Origin: a bacterium
GTDB taxonomy: Bacteria > Patescibacteriota > Minisyncoccia > Phycocordibacterales > GCA-002787175
Assembly (NCBI GenBank): GCA_030699905.1
Contig: JAUYKQ010000010.1
Span: forward strand, 2,554-66,553
DNA length: 64,000 nucleotides
Direction of reading: 5' to 3'
Shown: one piece after another, positions 1 to 15,919 of the stretch
Position numbering within the stretch: the first letter of the stretch is position 1
How the letters are laid out: the number at the start of each line of letters is the position of its first letter
The notes under the pieces: generated by a model
Database searches by the model: none
Seen by the model: the letters and a program-made list of their open reading frames with translations, nothing else
Told to the model about the DNA's origin: nothing
Position numbers and translations under genes: made by a program

Positions 1-938
1 AGCTGACTATATCGGTAGAATCCCAGGGAAGCGGATTATCGCGGATAAAAACGCAGATGAACGCTGATTGGGACAATACCGAGGGAAGATTTGTGTACTA
101 AATAGTGGGAAACAGGACAATGAATAAATTCCTTCTGGAACTGCGTGCGTTCGGATACGTTCGGCCGTACACCCTTAAATGGGAAGCATCCAGATGTTCC
201 GACTTGAATTTATTTAGGCATGAGTGCTGGTGCCATGCTGTCTTGATCGTTCATCGACCCACTAAGGAGGAATCACCACCCTGCGCAGTATATTCCTCCT
301 TCCTACTATTTAGTACATGAATCGCCCGTAGAGACTAAACGTCAGCCACCCTAAACAGCATGTGTTCGGGTGAAGCTATAGTCCGATCCTCTGAAGTAAT
401 TCAGAGAGACAGGCAGAAATGTCCTGTCCGCGTTTCAGATTCGGGTATGATTCGGGATCGTCTTGATTCGAGTCAATTCGGATTTGTTTACGGAGTAACA
501 AGATGCGTAAGACAGGTTGGTCTCCTATCTACTGCAGGCGTTGATTCTTGAAGGGAGTCATCCCTAGTACGAGAGGACCGGGATGAACTGACCTCTGGTC
601 TACCTGCTGTTCCCGCCAGGGGCAACGCAGGGTAGCTATGTTGGGAGTGGATAACTTCTGAAAGCATCTAAGAAGGAAGCCAACCCTAAGATTAGGAATC
701 GAGCGTGCGAAGCACGCAGTTCATCAAGTTGAAAGTTCATAAAGTTGTAAAGTTTATAAAGTAAAAACAAAATTTTCTGTTCTTACTTGATAAACTTGAT
801 AAACTTTTTACTTTACAAACTTGTGATTTGCGCGCTTCGCGCGTGAAGGCCCGTGGCAGATGACCACGTTGATAGGCACCAGGTGTAAGCGTCGTAAGGC
901 GTTCAGCCGAGGTGTACTAATTCGCCGATTCTATTAGG
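1..938 (+). rRNA. rrl: 23S rRNA, 3' portion (partial at window start). Positions 1-~480 are the 3' part of a group I intron (R-like element cccgtagagactaaacgtc at ~336-352, S-like gaagctatagtcc at ~375-388). Mature 23S sequence resumes by ~500; helix 98 carries a 140-nt insertion (703-843).
   Basis: Sarcin-ricin loop agtacgagaggaccgg at ~560-575. ctgaaagcatctaag and the 3'-terminal gttgataggc...gtaagcg...gtactaat match the conserved 23S domain VI. Positions 1-480 lack the conserved peptidyl transferase centre motifs and contain group I P7-like elements. Confidence 0.8.
703..843 (+). repeat. Hairpin insertion module in 23S H98. GC-clamp mini-hairpins gcgtGCGAAGCacgc and gcgcGCTTCGCgcg flank an AT-rich imperfect palindrome built from ataaagt and gataaactt units.
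   Basis: Directly visible inverted symmetry. The same clamp pair flanks a module in 16S V3 (10861-11005), and a variant flanks one in 16S V1. Confidence 0.7.
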
Positions 939-6332: not shown

Positions 6333-6731
6333 ATGAAAAATTCTAAAAACAGTAGATGGGTTAGCGTGATAGTCGGGACACTTTTTCTGTTCGTCGGAAT
6401 ACTATGGTCTATTTCGTCATTTCAGGGTTTCGAACGACATTTTATCAATACGATTCTTATACCGACAGTTTTCATATTTGTCGCGTTTGTATTATTCAAC
6501 TTGCCTTCGGAAAAAGATGGGGATAATTTAGAAACAAAAACAAACCGCTTAGCATCTGTAAGGGGTTCCGCCATTGTCTTTTTAGTGAGTATTGTGGTTG
6601 TTTTTGTCGTTCTTTACTTTGATGTTTCATCAGGAGGTTTGGGCATGTCTTCAATATTTACAATTCCATTGGCAGTAATTTGTTTTATCGTTCTGGTAAT
6701 TCAGCTAATTCTTTATTTCGGTAAAATGTAG
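6333..6731 (+). CDS. Small integral membrane protein (4 predicted TM), hypothetical.
   Basis: ORF with hydrophobic segments. Bracketed by the duplicated epimerase remnant. Confidence 0.4.
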   Translation: MKNSKNSRWVSVIVGTLFLFVGILWSISSFQGFERHFINTILIPTVFIFVAFVLFNLPSEKDGDNLETKTNRLASVRGSAIVFLVSIVVVFVVLYFDVSSGGLGMSSIFTIPLAVICFIVLVIQLILYFGKM

Positions 6732-6778
6732 AGTGGGATTAAAATGGAAAAAGCAAAACTTACAAAAGAAGAGAAAGG

Positions 6779-6840
6779 ACTGCTTGGCAAAGAAACTTAT
6801 CGGTTGGGAGCCGGAGGTGACGCTTGAGGAGGGGATCGGG
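6779..6840 (+). repeat. Second copy of the epimerase C-terminal remnant (direct repeat of 6218-6280; 42 nt identical, ~55 nt similar).
   Basis: cttggcaaagaaacttatcggttgggagccggaggtgacgct is identical in both copies. Confidence 0.6.
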
Positions 6841-6868
6841 GAGTTAAGTAGAAGTTTTAAAAGTTAAC

Positions 6869-7282
6869 ATGAAATTTGTGAACATGAGCCGAACAAAAAT
6901 AACAGCTGTTATAGCGGCAATAATGCTTTTTGTGGCGGGAATATTTATATATGGGATTAGAAAACCGATCTGGTTTGATAGCGGTTTACCAAATGAATTT
7001 TATGGAGGGATTGTTATCCTGTTTAGCATTTTCCACCTACATATCGCGCTTAGTAAAGAAAAATACGATTACCTCACGGGACTGAATGTATCAAGCATAA
7101 TTGCATCTATTTATTATTTTTTGATATGGAATTACGAATTAAATAATCCTACTTCCAATCTTGGTTTAGAGTTCGTCGTTGAGTTCCCGATTATGGTTGC
7201 CGTAATTTTGTTTTATGCGCTTGCTCTTATTCTGAATATTGCCGATTTTCTTTCAAAGATTATTCAAAAAGTAAGAAAATAA
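6869..7282 (+). CDS. Small integral membrane protein, hypothetical.
   Basis: ORF with hydrophobic segments. Confidence 0.4.
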   Translation: MKFVNMSRTKITAVIAAIMLFVAGIFIYGIRKPIWFDSGLPNEFYGGIVILFSIFHLHIALSKEKYDYLTGLNVSSIIASIYYFLIWNYELNNPTSNLGLEFVVEFPIMVAVILFYALALILNIADFLSKIIQKVRK

Positions 7283-9847: not shown

Positions 9848-11675
9848 AGCCGATACTGCCTTCAAAGGAGAAGGTGTGGACTTTGACAATTAAAACTTGA
9901 AATATTAAAGATTTGAGACGTGCAAGGTCTCAAAGTCTATTCCTTCCCGGCAGTAGAGAATTAAAAATTTTCACTGCGGGAAAAAAATGATTCCACCGGC
10001 TGACTAAGACAGCCGGCAGAGCAAGTTCAAACTCTTAAAACAACAAACAAAATTTCAGCAAAAACTGTCTTTTGTTTTGTTCCGTTCTAAAAATGCAGAC
10101 AAGATGCAAACAAAACTCCGGCGGACGAGGGAGGCAACTCCTCCGTAGGTCGGAGCGATGTAGGCAATAATGTCCTCATTTCTTAAATTAGAGTTTGATC
10201 CTAGCTCAGGATGAACGCTGGCGGCGTGGATAAGGCATGCAAGTCAAGGGTGTGTGCGGAGCACACAGTTTATAAAGTTATAAAGTCATAAAGTTCATAA
10301 AGTCAGAATCTTCTGCTTTACAAACTTTTTACTTTACGAACTTGTAACTTGTGCGCTTCGCGCACAACCGGCAGACGAGGTAGTAATAAGTAGGAATGTC
10401 CCCAAGAGTCAGGCATAGCTACGCGAAAGCGTGGGTAATTCCTGATGGTCTGACCGCATCACATGGAATGTGAATTAAGTTTATCAAGTTCATAAAGTTG
10501 CAAGTTTATAAAGTAAGACCAATGCCGGATTTTTTAGGCTCGCTTTTCTTACTTGATGAACTTTATAACTTTTTACTTTATAAACTTATTTCGCCTCTCA
10601 TGTGATGCGGTCAGTAAAGTCGCAAGACGCTTTTGGAACAGCCTACTCGGTATCAGCTAGATGGTAGGGTAATGGCCTACCATGGCTATGACGCCTAGGG
10701 GGGGTGAGAGCCCGATCCCCACCGATCGGACTGAGATACGGCCGATACACCTACGGGTGGCTGCAGCCGAGAATATTCCGCAATGGGCGAAAGCCTGACG
10801 GAGCGACGCCGCGTGGTTGATGAAGTTCTTAGGAATGTAAAAACCTTTTATTAGGGAGGAAGCGTGCGAAGCACACTGTACATGACACTGATGACACGAA
10901 TGTAAAGAACGAATGACACGAATAAAATTAACAAGACTTGATTTTATTCGTGTCATTCGCATCTTCTATTCGTAGATTCGTGTCGAGTTCAGCGCGCTTC
11001 GCGCGTTTGACGTTACCTGATGAATAAGGGGTTGCTAAACTCGTGCCAGCAGCAGCGGTAATACGAGTGCCCCGAGCGTTATCCGGAATCATTGGGCGTA
11101 AAGGGTGTGTAGGCGGCTTTGTTAGTCCTCTGTTAAATTCTTCGGCTCAACCGGGGTCTTGCAGGGGATACGGCAAAGCTTGAGGGTGTGAGGGGTGAAT
11201 GGAACTCATGGTGTAGGGGTGAAATCCGTTGATATCATGGGGAACACCAAAAGCGAAGGCAATTCACTGGCGCACTCCTGACGCTGAAACACGAAAGCGT
11301 GGGTAGCGAATGGGATTAGATAATCCTTGCCCGCTAATAAAACATAGGCAAAAGGTGTCTCTCCCGAAGGCGACTTCGGGATGAAAATCTAGCTGTATCG
11401 GGGAAACTCTCTGACACTATGCGCTTACTGGCGCGTTGGAGACAATCCCGAGGGAAGTTTTCTTGCATTGAAAGAAGGTTAATTTACCTGCATTGTAATT
11501 CTTGGAGCAATGCTGGTGCGAGTAAGGGAAAAGAAAAACAACTGTCCATAGTCGGAGGGTTGGGTGTTGCGGGGCTATCTGCACATCTCTTTGTCCAGGA
11601 AAAACCACCAACAGAAAGCGTGAGTAATTCGTGAAAGCGTGAATATGTGTCCCTTACTCAATTTGTTCTTTGGGC

Positions 11676-11754
11676 GCGGATGTAGCTCAGTTGGAATGAG
11701 TATCACCTTGATAAGGTGAGGGTCGCAGGGTTCGAATCCTTGCCATCCGCTCCA
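11676..11754 (+). tRNA. tRNA-Ile(GAU)-like sequence embedded in the 5' half of the 16S site-788 intron. Cloverleaf with a slightly long variable/T region; may be a functional tRNA, a pseudo-tRNA or a tRNA-like intron domain.
   Basis: Acceptor gcggatg/catccgc, D-arm gctcagttggaatgagt, anticodon stem tcacc/ggtga with loop ttGATaa, T-loop ggttcgaatcc, 3' tcca. ~70% identical to bacterial tRNA-Ile(GAU). Confidence 0.55.
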
Positions 11755-11871
11755 TTTTTCCGCCGAATTTTCGAAAAATTTGGCACCTTCTTTCAGTGCA
11801 AGACGACCCCGTAGAGACTATGAAATTGAGCAAGATAGTTGGTGCATTTTCTGTCGTAATGCAAAAAATAT

Positions 11872-12639
11872 ATGCAAAACGCGGATTCAAAATATGTGCC
11901 TTTGTCGAATCAAGTGCGAGCCATTATTCTAGGGTCAATTCTTGGAGATGGGTCGCTCAAGATTCAAAACGAGTACGCCAATGCGAATTTACAAATTCGT
12001 CATTCGGAAACTCAAAAAGACTATCTCTTATGGAAAGCGAATGTGCTTAAAGAGATAGCCGGAGATGGTAGTGTGAGCGTGCAAAAGCCGGATGGATACA
12101 GTACGAAGCCAAAGTGGAGGTTCAGGAGCAAGAGAACTCCAGCATTGACCGAACTGCATCATTTGACCTATAAGCACAATGCCTTGCGCATCAGGCGCAC
12201 ATGGTTAAATCAAATGAACGCTTTGTCGCTCGCCGTATGGTGGTGCGATGACGGTTCACTTATTGGCTACGGAGGCAGAAAAGGGGTGTTTTGTACCGAC
12301 GGCTTTGATGAAGAGTCAGTCAAAATACTTGCTCGCTATCTTGGAGTGGTTTGGAACATACGAGCGATAGTTGCTCCTGTCGGGCGAAAGCGCGATGGAA
12401 AGCAAGATCAGTATTGGCGGTTATGGATTCGTTCGCAGGAAGAATTGAAGAAATTTCTGCGTATTATCCTGCCGTACATACCTGTTTCGAGTATGCTCAA
12501 AAAAGCCATTCTACTCTATAAAGACCCTCAATTTCAACAACGCTGGATATCTGAAGTAATCAAGCTAAGTCCTTTTCCAGAATCTGTCATACTGGCGGAA
12601 TTTGAAAAAAAGAAAGCTAAATGGAATTGCTACAGATAA
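11872..12639 (+). CDS. LAGLIDADG homing endonuclease, double-motif, intron-encoded.
   Basis: Motifs LGSILGDGSL and LAVWWCDDGSL. Located inside the 16S intron. Confidence 0.85.
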   Translation: MQNADSKYVPLSNQVRAIILGSILGDGSLKIQNEYANANLQIRHSETQKDYLLWKANVLKEIAGDGSVSVQKPDGYSTKPKWRFRSKRTPALTELHHLTYKHNALRIRRTWLNQMNALSLAVWWCDDGSLIGYGGRKGVFCTDGFDEESVKILARYLGVVWNIRAIVAPVGRKRDGKQDQYWRLWIRSQEELKKFLRIILPYIPVSSMLKKAILLYKDPQFQQRWISEVIKLSPFPESVILAEFEKKKAKWNCYR

Positions 12640-12818
12640 AGATATAGTCCGGACTGCATGGAAACATGTAGAGCGAGGCAGAAATGCCCTCGCCTCCGCA
12701 TCAGGCGGAAGTAACATTTTCAACCCCAGTAGTCCACGCCCTAAACGATGTTCATTTGCTTTTCGGAGTATCGACCCTCTGAGAGGCGTAGCTAACGCGT
12801 TAAATGAACCGCCTGGGT

Positions 12819-12850
<32 letters not shown>

Positions 12851-13267
12851 AGACGGGGACTTGCACAAGCGGTGGATCATGTGGTTTAATTCGATACTAA
12901 ACGAAGAACCTTACCAAGCCTAGACATCCAAGGGAACTCCAGTAGAAATATTGGAGGCCACCACTTTGCGCGGAAGACGCAAAGTGAGTTCGTCAAGTTA
13001 TAAAGTATAAAGTTCATCAAGTTAGAGAATGTCTTACTTGATAAACTTTAAGAACTTTTGACTTGATAAACTTACTTTGTTCGCTTGCGAACAAAGTGCG
13101 GGGAGGAAGGCGAGGATGACGCCAGATCAGCATGACCCTTTGACGGCTTGGGCTACACACGTGATACAATGGCTGTTACAACACGTTTGCGACGGAGTAA
13201 TCCTGAGCTAATCGTTATAAAAGCAGCCCCAGTTCGGATTGAGGTCTGCAACTCGACCTCATGAAGT

Positions 13268-13314
<47 letters not shown>

Positions 13315-13322
13315 TCAAGTCT

Positions 13323-14262
13323 TGTACTCGGGTCGCCATGCGATCGAGTACGCTAGTTGGTGACCCGTCCTTCGTTAAAATTACGGAGGGCACGGTCCAG
13401 CTGTAATTTTTGAGCTTAATTAAATAAAAACCCCTGCTTATTTTATAAGGGGGGTTTAGGATCTAGAACTCTGAAAGCTGTTGTTGCGAGTTTCTATCTC
13501 TATTCTGCGGGACCGGCGTTGGATCTATTCAAACCAACCGCTTTCGCTTTTGGGGACTGATTTCGAACATTCTTCCAGAACTCCCTGACAAGATCCCTAA
13601 TTAATTAGGTCAGGACTATGTTACATGTTATCATATCTTGTGTTATCAGTCAAGAGCTTGAAAATTACAGCTGGACACGTTTTCGCTGAAGCTATAGCGA
13701 GGCGAGGAAATCCAACCAAGACAATTCACAGTGTCTTGAAGCGAAATACTAGTCTACTGTCCGCGAGGACTATAGATGAAGGAGTAAAGTAGCATTTCTT
13801 AGCTTGAATGCCAGTCATGGCGCATAACAGAGGTTATCCTGCGAGTACATGGAGAAACCTACTGTGTTACAAAAACTGTTATGCGTATCGTGGCATCGAG
13901 ATGAGAAAAAACAGTGTATTCGGTTACCGTGGGAGATCTCACTTGTTCTTTGTTTTTAAAGAGCAAAGTAAGCAATATATTAGGACGGGCAAAAATTTCC
14001 TAAAGTATTGATTAACAATAAGTGAGAAGTCTGCAGAGTCCGTAGTACCTATCGAAGTAAAATTTGATAGGGAAGGGACGAACTTAGAGGTTGTATGTAA
14101 TTTTTAATTTTGCATTGCTTGTCCCGTAGCGAGTTCTGCTCTGCTACAGGGATCATTTTGCATTTTGAGATTTGCATTTTAAATTTCTAAGAACCGCTAG
14201 GGTGCGGGAAAACCGCTTGCCCAGTGGTGTTTGGCTATTGAAAATAAATATCAATTGACCGA
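13323..14262 (+). other. ~940-nt ORF-less insertion in 16S near E. coli site ~1390, between cttgtac and accgcccgtca. Contains a long-range inverted repeat (13395-13411 / 13664-13680). Possibly a degenerate intron or other intervening sequence.
   Basis: Flanking conserved 16S segments gaatacgttctc...cttgtac and accgcccgtcaactcaagggagt. No ORF longer than 67 aa. Confidence 0.5.
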
Positions 14263-14353
14263 AAAACCGCCCGTCAACTCAAGGGAGTTGGGAATACCCG
14301 AAGCGCACGCTTTGCGTGCACTACGGTAAGCTCAATAACAGGGAGTAAGTCGT

Positions 14354-15287
14354 TATTGTAAAATACAATTGCGACCTGTCAAGGAAACTTGACAGAAAAA
14401 TCCAACTGAAATCGGTGAACCCCTCCTCTTTAATTTGTTATAATTAAAGGCATGAAGGCAATACCGAGGGAAGCTGGGAGAGTCACTTATTCAACGGAGA
14501 TTCGAAAGTTAAAAAATATTTCTTTTACCGAGGAGCAAAGAGCTCTCATTATTGGAAGTATTTTAGGCGACGGATGTCTGTGTGATAATTGGTCAAAGAC
14601 CAATTATCGTTTGTTTATCAATCATTGTCTGGGACAAAAAGATTACGTATGGTGGAAATACGGTGTTCTTAAGAATTATATCCTTTCAGAACCTAGATAC
14701 TATGATAGGAATAATTCCCTTACTATCCGGACCATTAGTCACTCTGAATTATCAGAATTGCGGAATGTTTTCTACAGAGATAAACAAAAAATAATTCCTC
14801 AAAATATTCAAGAATTTCTAAAGGATCCTCGCGTGCTTGCAGTATGGTTTATGGATGATGGTAACAATGTTATCCGGAATGGAAAAATTATTGGTTACCA
14901 CATCAACACACAATCATTCACACGAAAAGAAAATAAATTGCTTGCAAAATGTCTGTATGCCATTTACGGCATAGAAGCTCTGTTAGAACGAAATCATAAA
15001 AGGTATAGATTAGCAATTTGGAAGCGAGATTCGAGGTTGAAAATTAGAAACTTGGTAAAGCCGTATGTATTGGAAAGTATGCAATACAAACTCGGTTGAA
15101 TAAGCGACTCTCCTTAGCCCCGTAGAGACTGGATTCCGCTTAAAAGCGGATGAAGATAGCATGCACATAATGTGTCGCAGTGCCTCGACATTGCGATTAC
15201 GGTGCTATAAAACGTTGGCTCCATTGATAATTATCAATCGGATGAAGATATAGTCCATGCCCCAATGAAAATTGGGGAGAGAACATG
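14354..15287 (+). mobile_element. Group I intron at 16S site 1506 (between GUCGU and AACAAGG) with an internal homing endonuclease ORF. 5' exon ends in U; intron ends in G (omega G at 15287). R-like ccgtagagactgg ~15123-15136, S gaagatatagtcc ~15243-15256, P9-like hairpin ccccaatgaaaattgggg.
   Basis: Precise restoration of gtaagtcgt|aacaaggcacgggtagcggaagctgc (h45). Canonical P7 elements are present. Confidence 0.75.
14452..15099 (+). CDS. LAGLIDADG homing endonuclease, double-motif, intron-encoded.
   Basis: Motifs IIGSILGDGCL and LAVWFMDDGN. Confidence 0.85.
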   Translation: MKAIPREAGRVTYSTEIRKLKNISFTEEQRALIIGSILGDGCLCDNWSKTNYRLFINHCLGQKDYVWWKYGVLKNYILSEPRYYDRNNSLTIRTISHSELSELRNVFYRDKQKIIPQNIQEFLKDPRVLAVWFMDDGNNVIRNGKIIGYHINTQSFTRKENKLLAKCLYAIYGIEALLERNHKRYRLAIWKRDSRLKIRNLVKPYVLESMQYKLG

Positions 15288-15765
15288 AACAAGGCACGGG
15301 TAGCGGAAGCTGCTCGTGGAATATTTCAAGTGAACAATGTCAGGAGCGGATTATCGCGGATAAAAACGCTGATAGACGCCGATGACTGAACGAGTCGATA
15401 TCGCTATCTCTACGGAGTAAGCGGTGGATAAGATTAATATCCTAAAAAAAATCTGACAGACCGGAAAGACGGCACCCGCCGTATCACATGGAATGTGATA
15501 GCGGAAATCCAAAGCACGAAATACTAAATCCTAAACAATATCAAAATTCAAATGACAAAAATTCCAAACAGTAGTCTCTATTTTGAATTTAATATTTTGA
15601 TAATTTGAATTTGTTTCGGATTTCGGTATTAGAATTTCGGATTTTCCGCATCATCGTGTCTCATGTGATGCGGCGGTAAGGAACGGAACAAAACAAAGGA
15701 CAGAAGGTAAAAGAAATTTCAATTTCTAATTGTCTAATTCACATAGATGAAGACAAAGAAGGGTC

Positions 15766-15799
15766 AAAAAAACGGCTAAATATATTTAGCCGTTTTTTT
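15766..15799. terminator. Bidirectional rho-independent terminator: palindrome cggctaaata|tatttagccg flanked by A7 and T7.
   Basis: Perfect palindrome with flanking A/T runs. Confidence 0.6.
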
Positions 15800-15842
15800 G
15801 TTGCTATAGCGCGCTATTTTTGGTATATTTTCAGAGTAATTT

Positions 15843-15919
15843 GCGAGTGTAGCTCAGGTGGTTAGAGCACTCCACTGATAATGGAGAGGTCCCAAGTTCG
15901 AGTCTTGGCACTCGCACCA
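15843..15919 (+). tRNA. tRNA-Ile(GAU), with encoded CCA.
   Basis: gcgagtg ta gctc aggtggtta gagc a ctcca ctGATaa tggag aggtc ccaag ttcgagt cttgg cactcgc a cca: a canonical cloverleaf. Confidence 0.85.

Follow-up and report, generated by a model that had tools for sequence, protein, structure and literature searches.

A putative mobile group I intron with a tRNA-like gene in its P6 loop in the 16S rRNA gene of a Parcubacteria-type bacterium

The ribosomal RNA (rRNA) genes of bacteria belonging to the candidate phyla radiation (CPR) carry LAGLIDADG group I introns at several conserved 16S and 23S sites, variants of these introns that lack an open reading frame (ORF), and a group II-like insert near position 1400 (Tsurumaki 2024, PMC11270868). 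The DNA analysed here, a stretch of 64 kb from contig JAUYKQ010000010.1 (hereafter the window), holds an insertion of this kind at 11322-12722 on the + strand, where it interrupts the 790 loop of a 16S rRNA gene (U793|A794). The host is a Parcubacteria-type, Taylorbacteria-like CPR bacterium, and the insertion is very probably a mobile group I intron with an endonuclease gene in P8 and a cargo in P6. It resembles the introns of that survey in host group, gene, intron class and endonuclease family, and in the occurrence of versions with and without an ORF that share a highly similar core. LAGLIDADG_2 enzymes are placed by the survey at sites 16IS5 and 16IS10 (PMC11270868). The identification of the intron itself is known biology for CPR rRNA genes (Tsurumaki 2024); the survey makes no mention of transfer RNA (tRNA) and describes neither a cargo position in P6 nor an alternation of A and G at the terminal nucleotide (PMC11270868). 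What goes beyond it is the tRNA-like gene nested in the intron, a P6 loop that swaps its cargo, and a terminal nucleotide that is A in the majority of the family.

LAGLIDADG group I introns in CPR rRNA genes were reportedly noted by Brown et al. in 2015. Several introns within one bacterial 16S gene, at sites near 795, 1396 and 1495 and with LAGLIDADG genes, are said to have been described by Salman in 2012; that host belongs to a different phylum, and the sites as reported would fall in the same three neighbourhoods as those found here. We know of no tRNA cargo in those introns. Extended or ORF-bearing P6 loops occur in introns of the phage T4 td/nrdB type and of the Tetrahymena type, in which P6 is peripheral and tolerates large insertions as it does here, but the cargo is an endonuclease ORF or structural RNA, not a tRNA. 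Bacterial 16S-23S spacers, in turn, hold tRNA-Ile and tRNA-Ala genes that are transcribed from the rRNA promoter and cut out by RNase P. Transcription with the rRNA would be shared by the gene described below, as is the anticodon (Ile GAU) with the tRNA gene that starts at 15843 of the window, whereas its location inside a 16S intron, its non-canonical T stem and its U73 set it apart. Intron-located tRNA genes are known from organelles, namely from Ophiostomatales mitogenomes (PMC7902536) and from a cob intron of Leucomyxa (PMC11528492); there too the tRNA is nested in an intron and transcribed with the host gene, but the introns are mitochondrial and mostly interrupt protein genes. In the literature searched, no report of an intron-borne tRNA in bacteria was found, only these organelle cases.

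Insertion site and ribozyme fold

The host 16S gene (~10183-15330) is heavily interrupted, both by expansion hairpins and by three large insertions, which lie at 11322-12722, near 1395/1396 (~936 nucleotides, nt) and at 14354-15287 (934 nt). The junctions were read directly, and the limits assigned to the first and third of these in a preliminary description of this DNA proved exact. For the first, 11322 is the initial and 12722 the last intron nucleotide, giving a length of 1,401 nt. Exon 1 (10183-11321, +), which matches Rfam SSU_rRNA_bacteria with 646 bits, terminates in ...GGGATTAGAT at 11321, its end at U793 reading ...GGGAUUAGAU, and exon 2 (12723-13327, +) opens with ACCCCAGTAGTCC at 12723, starting at A794 (ACCCCAGUAGUCC). 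Site numbers follow Escherichia coli numbering and were counted by hand, with the 785F primer, m3U1498 and A1518/A1519 as anchors; the count for the present site started at GGATTAGATACCCTGGTAGTCC, the universally conserved 785F primer region. This count moves the insertion site from ~788, as first proposed, to U793/A794, a shift of 5 nt, and that of the third insertion from 1506 to U1498/A1499, a shift of 8 nt.

An A is found at both junctions, so that from exon sequence the intron can be drawn either after U793 or after A794. Since the guide sequence GGU|GUCU pairs with both exons, the 5' splice site is placed after U793 and exon 2 begins at A794. On this model, the spliced junction would read ...GGGAUUAGAU-ACCCCAGUAG, and a product GGGAUUAGAUA-CCCCAG would restore the helix 24 pairs U783-A799, G784-C798, G785-C797 and G786-C796. 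The stretches 11297-12749 and 11544-12750 are matched at 100% by contigs from two separate sequencing runs, so the nesting of the tRNA-like gene in the intron is not a quirk of one assembly.

A model of the fold was built by hand, checked against the Rfam structure line for L059, an ORF-less relative from an independent metagenome, and tested on 48 distinct sequences with variable loops trimmed. Over the 89 modelled pairs, 87.3% of the cells were canonical, a value that dropped to 39-44% when the 3' partner was slid by 1-3 columns, and compensatory changes were found at 51 pairs. Compensatory double changes affected 8/8 pairs in P2, 6/8 in P5, 6/7 in P9, 7/8 in P9.1, 5/5 in P9.2 and 10/13 in the P6 extension; P6 is invariant, and P1, P4, P7 and P10 are nearly so. 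Together with a Pfam match of the encoded protein to LAGLIDADG_2, this complete and covarying P1-P10 model bears out the initial proposal of a group I intron with a LAGLIDADG endonuclease.

The guide sequence (11354-11360) lies within the invariant stretch AAGGUGUCUC; like all parts of the intron listed here, it is on the + strand. In P1, GUCU (11357-11360) pairs with exon AGAU (790-793) and forms the U793.G wobble, which is unchanged in all 48 sequences together with the two adjoining pairs, and the outermost pair (A790-U11360) is canonical in only 23 of them. In P10, GGU (11354-11356) pairs with ACC (794-796) of the 3' exon and is canonical in 47-48 of the 48. P1 is extended by a covarying hairpin (UUGCC...GGCAA, 11327-11351), for which the variants TTGTC/GACAA, GTCAC/GTGAC and CGGCTA/TAGCCG were found, and is followed by the P2 hairpin with its GCGA loop (11362-11381; all eight pairs compensatory, 96% canonical). 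The P3 strands CUAGCU (11389-11394) and AGUUGG (11837-11842) pair in the covariation model (83% canonical) in the register of Rfam P3 in L059; an earlier register, UAGCUGU/AUAGUUG, was dropped upon that comparison. P4 (UCGGGG/UCCCGA), J4/5 (AAA), P5, P5a and J5/4 (CAA) occupy 11398-11451: four of the six P4 pairs are unchanged (96.5% canonical), six of the eight P5 pairs (11408-11415/11435-11442) show compensatory changes (93% canonical), and P5a spans 11421-11434 with the loop UUACUG. The P6 base (GGG) and the 5' strand of a long clamp, P6a, follow at 11452-11478; their partner at 11786-11810 comprises the 3' strands of the clamp and of P6, and the minimum-energy fold keeps the clamp.

In P7, the 5' strand GAGACUAU (11814-11821), with the bulged A11815, pairs with AUAGUCC (12644-12650), the S element. 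Six of the seven pairs are invariant in the 48 sequences, as are the G-C pairs and the bulge (GAGACUAU/AUAGUCC), and G11816-C12649 presumably corresponds to the guanosine-binding pair, by analogy with Tetrahymena G264-C311. The P8 strands (11850-11860 and 12626-12636) enclose the ORF and are canonical in 66% of cells, a weaker value because ORF-containing and ORF-less variants align poorly. P9 and P9.1, each with a GAAA loop, and P9.2 fill 12654-12709 (99%, 88% and 84% canonical, respectively), and the conserved 3' tail AGUAACAUUUUCA (12710-12722) ends the intron at A12722, the terminal (omega) nucleotide.

The comparison with Rfam Intron_gpI (RF00028), which had been suggested as a check, gave a divided outcome. 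The window copy reaches only 34 bits (E = 1.7e-5), below the gathering score of 50, and its match is confined to 12474-12671, a 3' portion of the intron that lies beyond the inserts in P6 and P8; this result weighs against the identification. Its relatives do pass: the ORF-less L059 copy (482 nt) scores 55.6 bits and L086 51.1 bits, and the RF00028 structure line fits the L059 intron. No group II model matched within 11322-12722 in the Rfam scan, whose sole group II match (14009-14078) lies in the neighbouring insertion.

Two further features of the fold were observed. The P5a loop (UUACU, 11425-11429) is complementary to AGUAA in the 3' tail (12710-12714) in most sequences, at positions that barely vary, and the two may pair over a long distance and so help to place the 3' splice site. 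Endonuclease-bearing copies also have ~15 extra nt (GAAAUUGAGCAAGAU) between P7 and the P3 3' strand (11822-11836), which are missing from L059 (7887-7889); CUAU and AUAG around GAAAUUGAGCAAGAU could form a hairpin competing with P7.

The gene in the P8 loop (11872-12639, +) encodes a LAGLIDADG_2 protein of 255 amino acids (Pfam PF03161, 109.4 bits for a cut-off of 25, E = 2.4e-31), and ends in a stop codon that overlaps P8 on its 3' strand. The protein has the motifs IILGSILGDGSL, reading ILGSILGDGSL, and LAVWWCDDGSL; the presence of two suggests that the enzyme is probably monomeric. Among its 969 homologues, every one with a source name comes from a CPR bacterium of the Parcubacteria group. 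The endonuclease would presumably cut intron-less 16S ribosomal DNA at the 793 site, where the target carries GGGATTAGATACCCCAGTAGTCC, and so would drive homing. Cleavage of its own insertion site has been demonstrated for the CPR LAGLIDADG enzyme I-ShaI, which belongs to a 23S site (PMC11270868).

Cargo of the P6 loop

The same intron occupies the same site in 14 genome loci found by a protein-seeded scan, with hosts that include Taylorbacteria, Nomurabacteria, Doudnabacteria, Wolfebacteria and Campbellbacteria, and in at least 120 metagenome loci found by a DNA-pattern scan, on which the metagenome family counts given here rest. Of the genome loci, the nearest comes from a Candidatus Taylorbacteria assembly (92% protein identity). 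Among the matches listed, the window intron is a mosaic, with its 5' part nearest to L069 (97%) and its endonuclease gene nearest to L097 (94%), and its cargo is unique.

In the 121 family copies among the matches listed, the P4'/P6 and J6/7-P7 core elements stand 10 to 624 nt apart, and about half of these copies have a minimal P6 hairpin. The inserts of the others are unrelated to one another and comprise small sense ORFs followed by a hairpin, small antisense ORFs beside promoter-like hexamers, or a LAGLIDADG gene. P6 is a hot spot for cargo swapping, where tRNA genes, small ORFs in sense and antisense orientation, and a second endonuclease gene are found. In L037 and L039, the LAGLIDADG ORF sits in P6 (loops of 614-624 nt) and not in P8, matching the position of the ORF in another intron of the window, at U1498. 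Small sense ORFs were seen in L001, L002, L005, L025, L056 and L070, and antisense ones in L024, L028, L049, L074, L082, L102 and L114. Several of these ORFs encode short hydrophobic peptides, and one antisense group has its own TTGACA/TATAAT-like hexamers beside the P6 stem; an abundant intron RNA running antisense to a small hydrophobic ORF recalls, as pure speculation, type I toxin-antitoxin pairs.

In the window, the P6a clamp (11457-11478/11786-11807) has 22 positions forming 21 pairs with one U-C mismatch, and encloses 307 nt. This cargo consists of a structured segment of 190 nt, a tRNA-Ile(GAU)-like gene and a trailer hairpin, and the whole P6 arm folds as the clamp plus independent sub-domains (z = -6.9). 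The structured segment (11479-11668, +; fold z = -2.9), with a stem formed by GAGUAAGGGA (11522) and UCCCUUACUC (11651), is specific to the window: it is absent from the L059 cassette by alignment, has no BLAST match in any of the 149 loci listed or elsewhere in the window, and matched no Rfam family at E up to 5, and no convincing ORF was found in it. The trailer hairpin (11762-11784, +) is common to L059 and L086, and a hairpin stands at the same place in the sense-ORF cargos of relatives.

The tRNA-like gene (11676-11754, +), which the preliminary description had not mentioned, is called as tRNA-Ile(GAT) by ARAGORN and scores 57.5 bits with Rfam RF00005, for a gathering score of 29. Its minimum-energy fold is the cloverleaf (z = -3.2), and U8, G18G19, U33 and A37 are intact, as are the UUCGAAU T-loop and a CCA encoded in the gene, the GAU anticodon being accompanied by A37 and A38. 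A fully canonical tRNA-Thr(CGU) lies at the same P6 spot in L059 (Rfam, 65.5 bits; stems 7/5). The two share the leader (TTTGTTCTTTGGGC), the start of the acceptor stem, U73-CCA and the trailer hairpin, and their tRNA bodies are only 73% identical. Both bases of each of the five anticodon-stem pairs differ between them, with pairing kept in every case. A recent copy of a host tRNA was rejected as the source, the best identity to the 68 tRNAs in the loci being 75%, the level of unrelated class I tRNAs. An exact metagenome scan with 30 nt of the tRNA body gave 0 matches. tRNA-like pieces picked out by eye in the cargos of L029, L035/L058 and L048 were unsupported by Rfam at E up to 0.1, and ARAGORN, when allowing introns, calls a dubious 'tRNA-Pro' of 146 nt in L048.

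These data raise the tentative possibility that P6 is a cargo position for tRNA genes that are expressed (Ile-GAU in the window, Thr-CGU in L059), with the rRNA promoter driving their transcription and RNase P freeing the products. No + strand promoter was found inside the intron, so that expression could only come from the rRNA precursor. Transcription of the tRNA-like RNA would accordingly start at the rRNA promoter, its excision from the intron or the precursor would most likely fall to RNase P together with a 3' nuclease, and the P6a clamp would keep the nicked ribozyme together; the release is proposed by analogy with RNase P biology, and any function as a tRNA is hypothetical.

Several observations weigh against a working tRNA. 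An inserted g.u pair gives a T stem of 6 bp and an acceptor/T stack of 13 bp, where canonical tRNAs have 7+5 bp and a 12-bp stack. At the discriminator position the gene has U73, whereas all tRNA-Ile genes of related CPR bacteria recovered from the loci listed have A73. A normal tRNA-Ile(GAU) gene lies 3 kb downstream, just after the 16S gene (15843-15919), which makes the intron-borne copy redundant. ARAGORN calls a tRNA in only 2 of the 121 family cargos among the matches listed. The lack of a + strand promoter within the intron and the identity of at most 75% to the tRNAs recovered count on this side too. Finally, the flanks recur in L086 around a four-arm cloverleaf that is degenerate, ends in ACCA and looks like decay.

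The same observations favour a decaying passenger, captured in P6 by recombination, without a role, and tolerated because P6 accepts any insert. The extra base pair in the T stem, U73 in place of the A73 of host tRNA-Ile genes, the redundancy with the canonical gene at 15843, and an L086 cassette with identical flanks whose cloverleaf is accepted by neither ARAGORN nor Rfam all point in this direction, as does the extreme diversity of P6 cargos. The kept pairing speaks against it: between the window and L059, five anticodon-stem pairs differ and every one still pairs, and U8, G18G19, U33 and UUCGAAU are intact, which argues for selection on the fold, or for a recent import of functional tRNA parts. 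On balance, the passenger, although short of an even chance, ranks somewhat ahead of the working tRNA and of a third explanation, in which the tRNA shape is a processing signal.

In that explanation, which we consider unlikely, RNase P (and RNase Z) would cut P6 and thereby linearise or inactivate the excised intron, or free the endonuclease mRNA. It would account for the conservation of the acceptor stem, U73 and CCA between the 'Ile' and 'Thr' versions, for the 7-bp acceptor stem and ACCA retained by L086 on a body that is not a tRNA, and for an acceptor/T-arm minihelix in the L035/L058 cargos; the 22-position clamp would hold the nicked P6 together. Nevertheless, L059 has the tRNA and yet no endonuclease ORF, about half of the family does without any such signal in a minimal P6 hairpin, and the minihelix-like cases were seen by eye and are not significant in Rfam.

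Terminal nucleotide and splicing

The last nucleotide of the intron is A12722, so the initial remark that no obvious omega-G stands at this boundary was correct. Of 54 distinct full-length family introns, 34 have A and 20 have G at the terminal position, and none has a pyrimidine. Since all 54 have a purine there, the position behaves as omega despite the A, which is its majority state (about 63%).

By analogy with group I chemistry, the intron is proposed to splice itself. Transcribed within the pre-16S rRNA, it would fold as a complete group I ribozyme from P1 to P10. The guide GGU|GUCU would pair first with exon AGAU, placing U793.G at the cleavage site, and later with ACC of the 3' exon. 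An exogenous guanosine held at the P7 G-C pair would attack after U793, and the freed 3'-OH of U793 would then attack after A12722, ligating the exons and restoring GGGAUUAGAUACCCC.

The terminal A counts against this scheme, because the G-C binding pair of P7 is unchanged alongside it. In model introns, a terminal A facing an unchanged G-C pocket slows exon ligation, and by analogy splicing here may be inefficient or need a protein helper. The 23S intron of Coxiella burnetii, like this one, reportedly ends in a nucleotide other than G, but it lies in 23S and is a single case, whereas the present family alternates between A (63%) and G (37%). It is reported as a self-splicing bacterial rRNA intron without canonical omega-G in a study of two self-splicing introns by Raghavan et al. 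from 2007, cited in PMC11270868. The missing omega-G is unusual, not disqualifying.

A stronger claim would be that, lacking omega-G, the intron is unable to complete self-splicing and depends on a protein cofactor (a LAGLIDADG maturase or a host factor), on hydrolysis or on other nucleases. ORF-less members such as L059 end in A too (..AUA|ACCCC), and this, along with the reported self-splicing of the Coxiella intron, makes such a dependence improbable in our view. It would fit the terminal A in 34/54 members with an unchanged P7 G-C pair, and LAGLIDADG proteins are known to act as maturases on introns of organelles (PMC11270868, PMC3984707). Although intervening sequences of the RNase III type have been raised as a possibility for CPR rRNA genes (PMC11270868) and rRNA regions of metagenome-assembled genomes are prone to misassembly, an RNase III-cut insertion without religation (a fragmented 16S rRNA) or an assembly artefact is highly improbable given a group I core that is complete and covaries, the pairing of the guide sequence with both exons, a site inside the conserved and functionally essential 790 loop and not at a helix tip, the identity of contigs from two sequencing runs across both junctions, and the same architecture in the independent metagenome L059.

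Related introns and other insertions in the rRNA genes of the window

Three sequence blocks of the intron recur in two other rRNA insertions of the window: ACAATMCCGAGGGAAG at 73, 11442 and 14458, CCCGTAGAGACT at 325, 11808 and 15119, and GAAGMTATAGTCC (with at most one mismatch) at 372, 12638 and 15244. The 64 kb hold exactly three copies of each block, all of them on the + strand, in a constant order and within the three insertions, and three matches per block were reached in 0/100 dinucleotide shuffles, which confirms the sharing of blocks noticed at the outset. The blocks are the catalytic-core elements P4'/P6, J6/7-P7 and J8/7-P7', and part of their similarity is the general group I core consensus.

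One of the relatives is a group I intron after U1498 (14354-15287, +), with an ORF at 14452-15099 and flanks ..AAGTCGT| and ..CATG|AACAAGG. Its boundary is indeed the textbook U|...G| type, AAGUCGU|...G|AACAAGG, with omega-G at 15287. In its P1, which has a loop hairpin, exon GUCGU pairs with GCGAC (14371-14375) and includes a U.G wobble. The ORF encodes a LAGLIDADG_2 protein (E = 1.5e-38) and is located outside P8, in the interval from the P4'/P6 block to P7. The other relative is the 3' part of a group I intron in the 23S rRNA gene, cut by the start of the window (1-505, +; Rfam Intron_gpI 39 bits, E = 5e-7). It ends ..GUAACAAGAUG|CGUAAGACAG and thus runs to 505, not 480 as previously stated. 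It shares with the 793 intron the core blocks, the P9.1 loop GCAGAAAUG and a GUAACA tail, and an alignment of all three introns was largely uninformative outside these elements.

The preliminary description had taken these introns for paralogues of one family that has spread to several rRNA sites. The shared subgroup core motifs agree with this as far as relationship goes. Recent copying does not hold, since the ORFs lie in different loops and the 793 and U1498 endonucleases are only 29% identical; the three introns are of one structural type and represent old site-specific lineages. The L059 16S gene with the tRNA-Thr intron also holds another group I intron at a different site (6706-7221; Rfam 58.9 bits).

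The remaining large insertion of the 16S gene, ~936 nt near 1395/1396 (~13328-14263), has no long ORF, and its only match is Rfam group-II-D1D4-1 (14009-14078, 44 bits); domain V was not matched in it by Rfam. Its position is that of the 'group II-like' site near 1400 already described for CPR bacteria. A family of long hairpins that are AT-rich and near-perfect (AAAGTTCATAAAGTT-type repeats; fold z = -7 to -8) is inserted in the 5S, 16S (at least 4 places) and 23S genes, at 1184-1323, 12964-13103, 10254-10363, 10474-10590, ~10870-11006 and 705-842, and identity between the 5S and 16S copies is 88% over 140 nt. Past its insert, the 5S gene appears to resume (...GGGGAGAGTAGCTAGTCGCCAACA, ~1318-1345), which would make the insert longer than 100 nt; the CPR survey has no such insert among 645 5S genes (PMC11270868).

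The rRNA genes of the window do not form one operon: the 3' part of the 23S gene (506-930), preceded by the intron that ends at 505, and the 5S gene lie 9 kb upstream of the 16S gene, and the 23S-5S (1-1345) and 16S-tRNA-Ile (10183-15919) groups share a strand but are separated by protein genes. Immediately beyond helix 45, the 3' tail of the 16S gene has the sequence GGAAUAUUUCAAG, and the usual anti-Shine-Dalgarno sequence CACCUCCUU is not evident in 15320-15460. Close by, ~80 nt (15345-15420) match the periphery of the 23S intron (30-68 at 90% and 469-498 at 73%), joined without the catalytic core, and look like a core-less intron remnant.

As an intron it is ordinary for CPR bacteria, and its practical weight lies in the fact that such inserts break 16S primers and annotation. 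Its terminal nucleotide makes more of it: a family in which A is the majority state and the guanosine pocket is unchanged is a natural comparative system for ribozymes without omega-G. Should the tRNA interpretation be true, these would be, within the literature searched, the first intron-borne tRNAs in bacteria, and the intron would be useful to its genome-reduced host, or hard to lose. A functional tRNA would change both the counting of tRNAs in CPR genomes and the explanation of why such introns persist. A tRNA in an intron in a 16S gene links the biology of rRNA, tRNA and mobile elements in genomes with only one rRNA operon.

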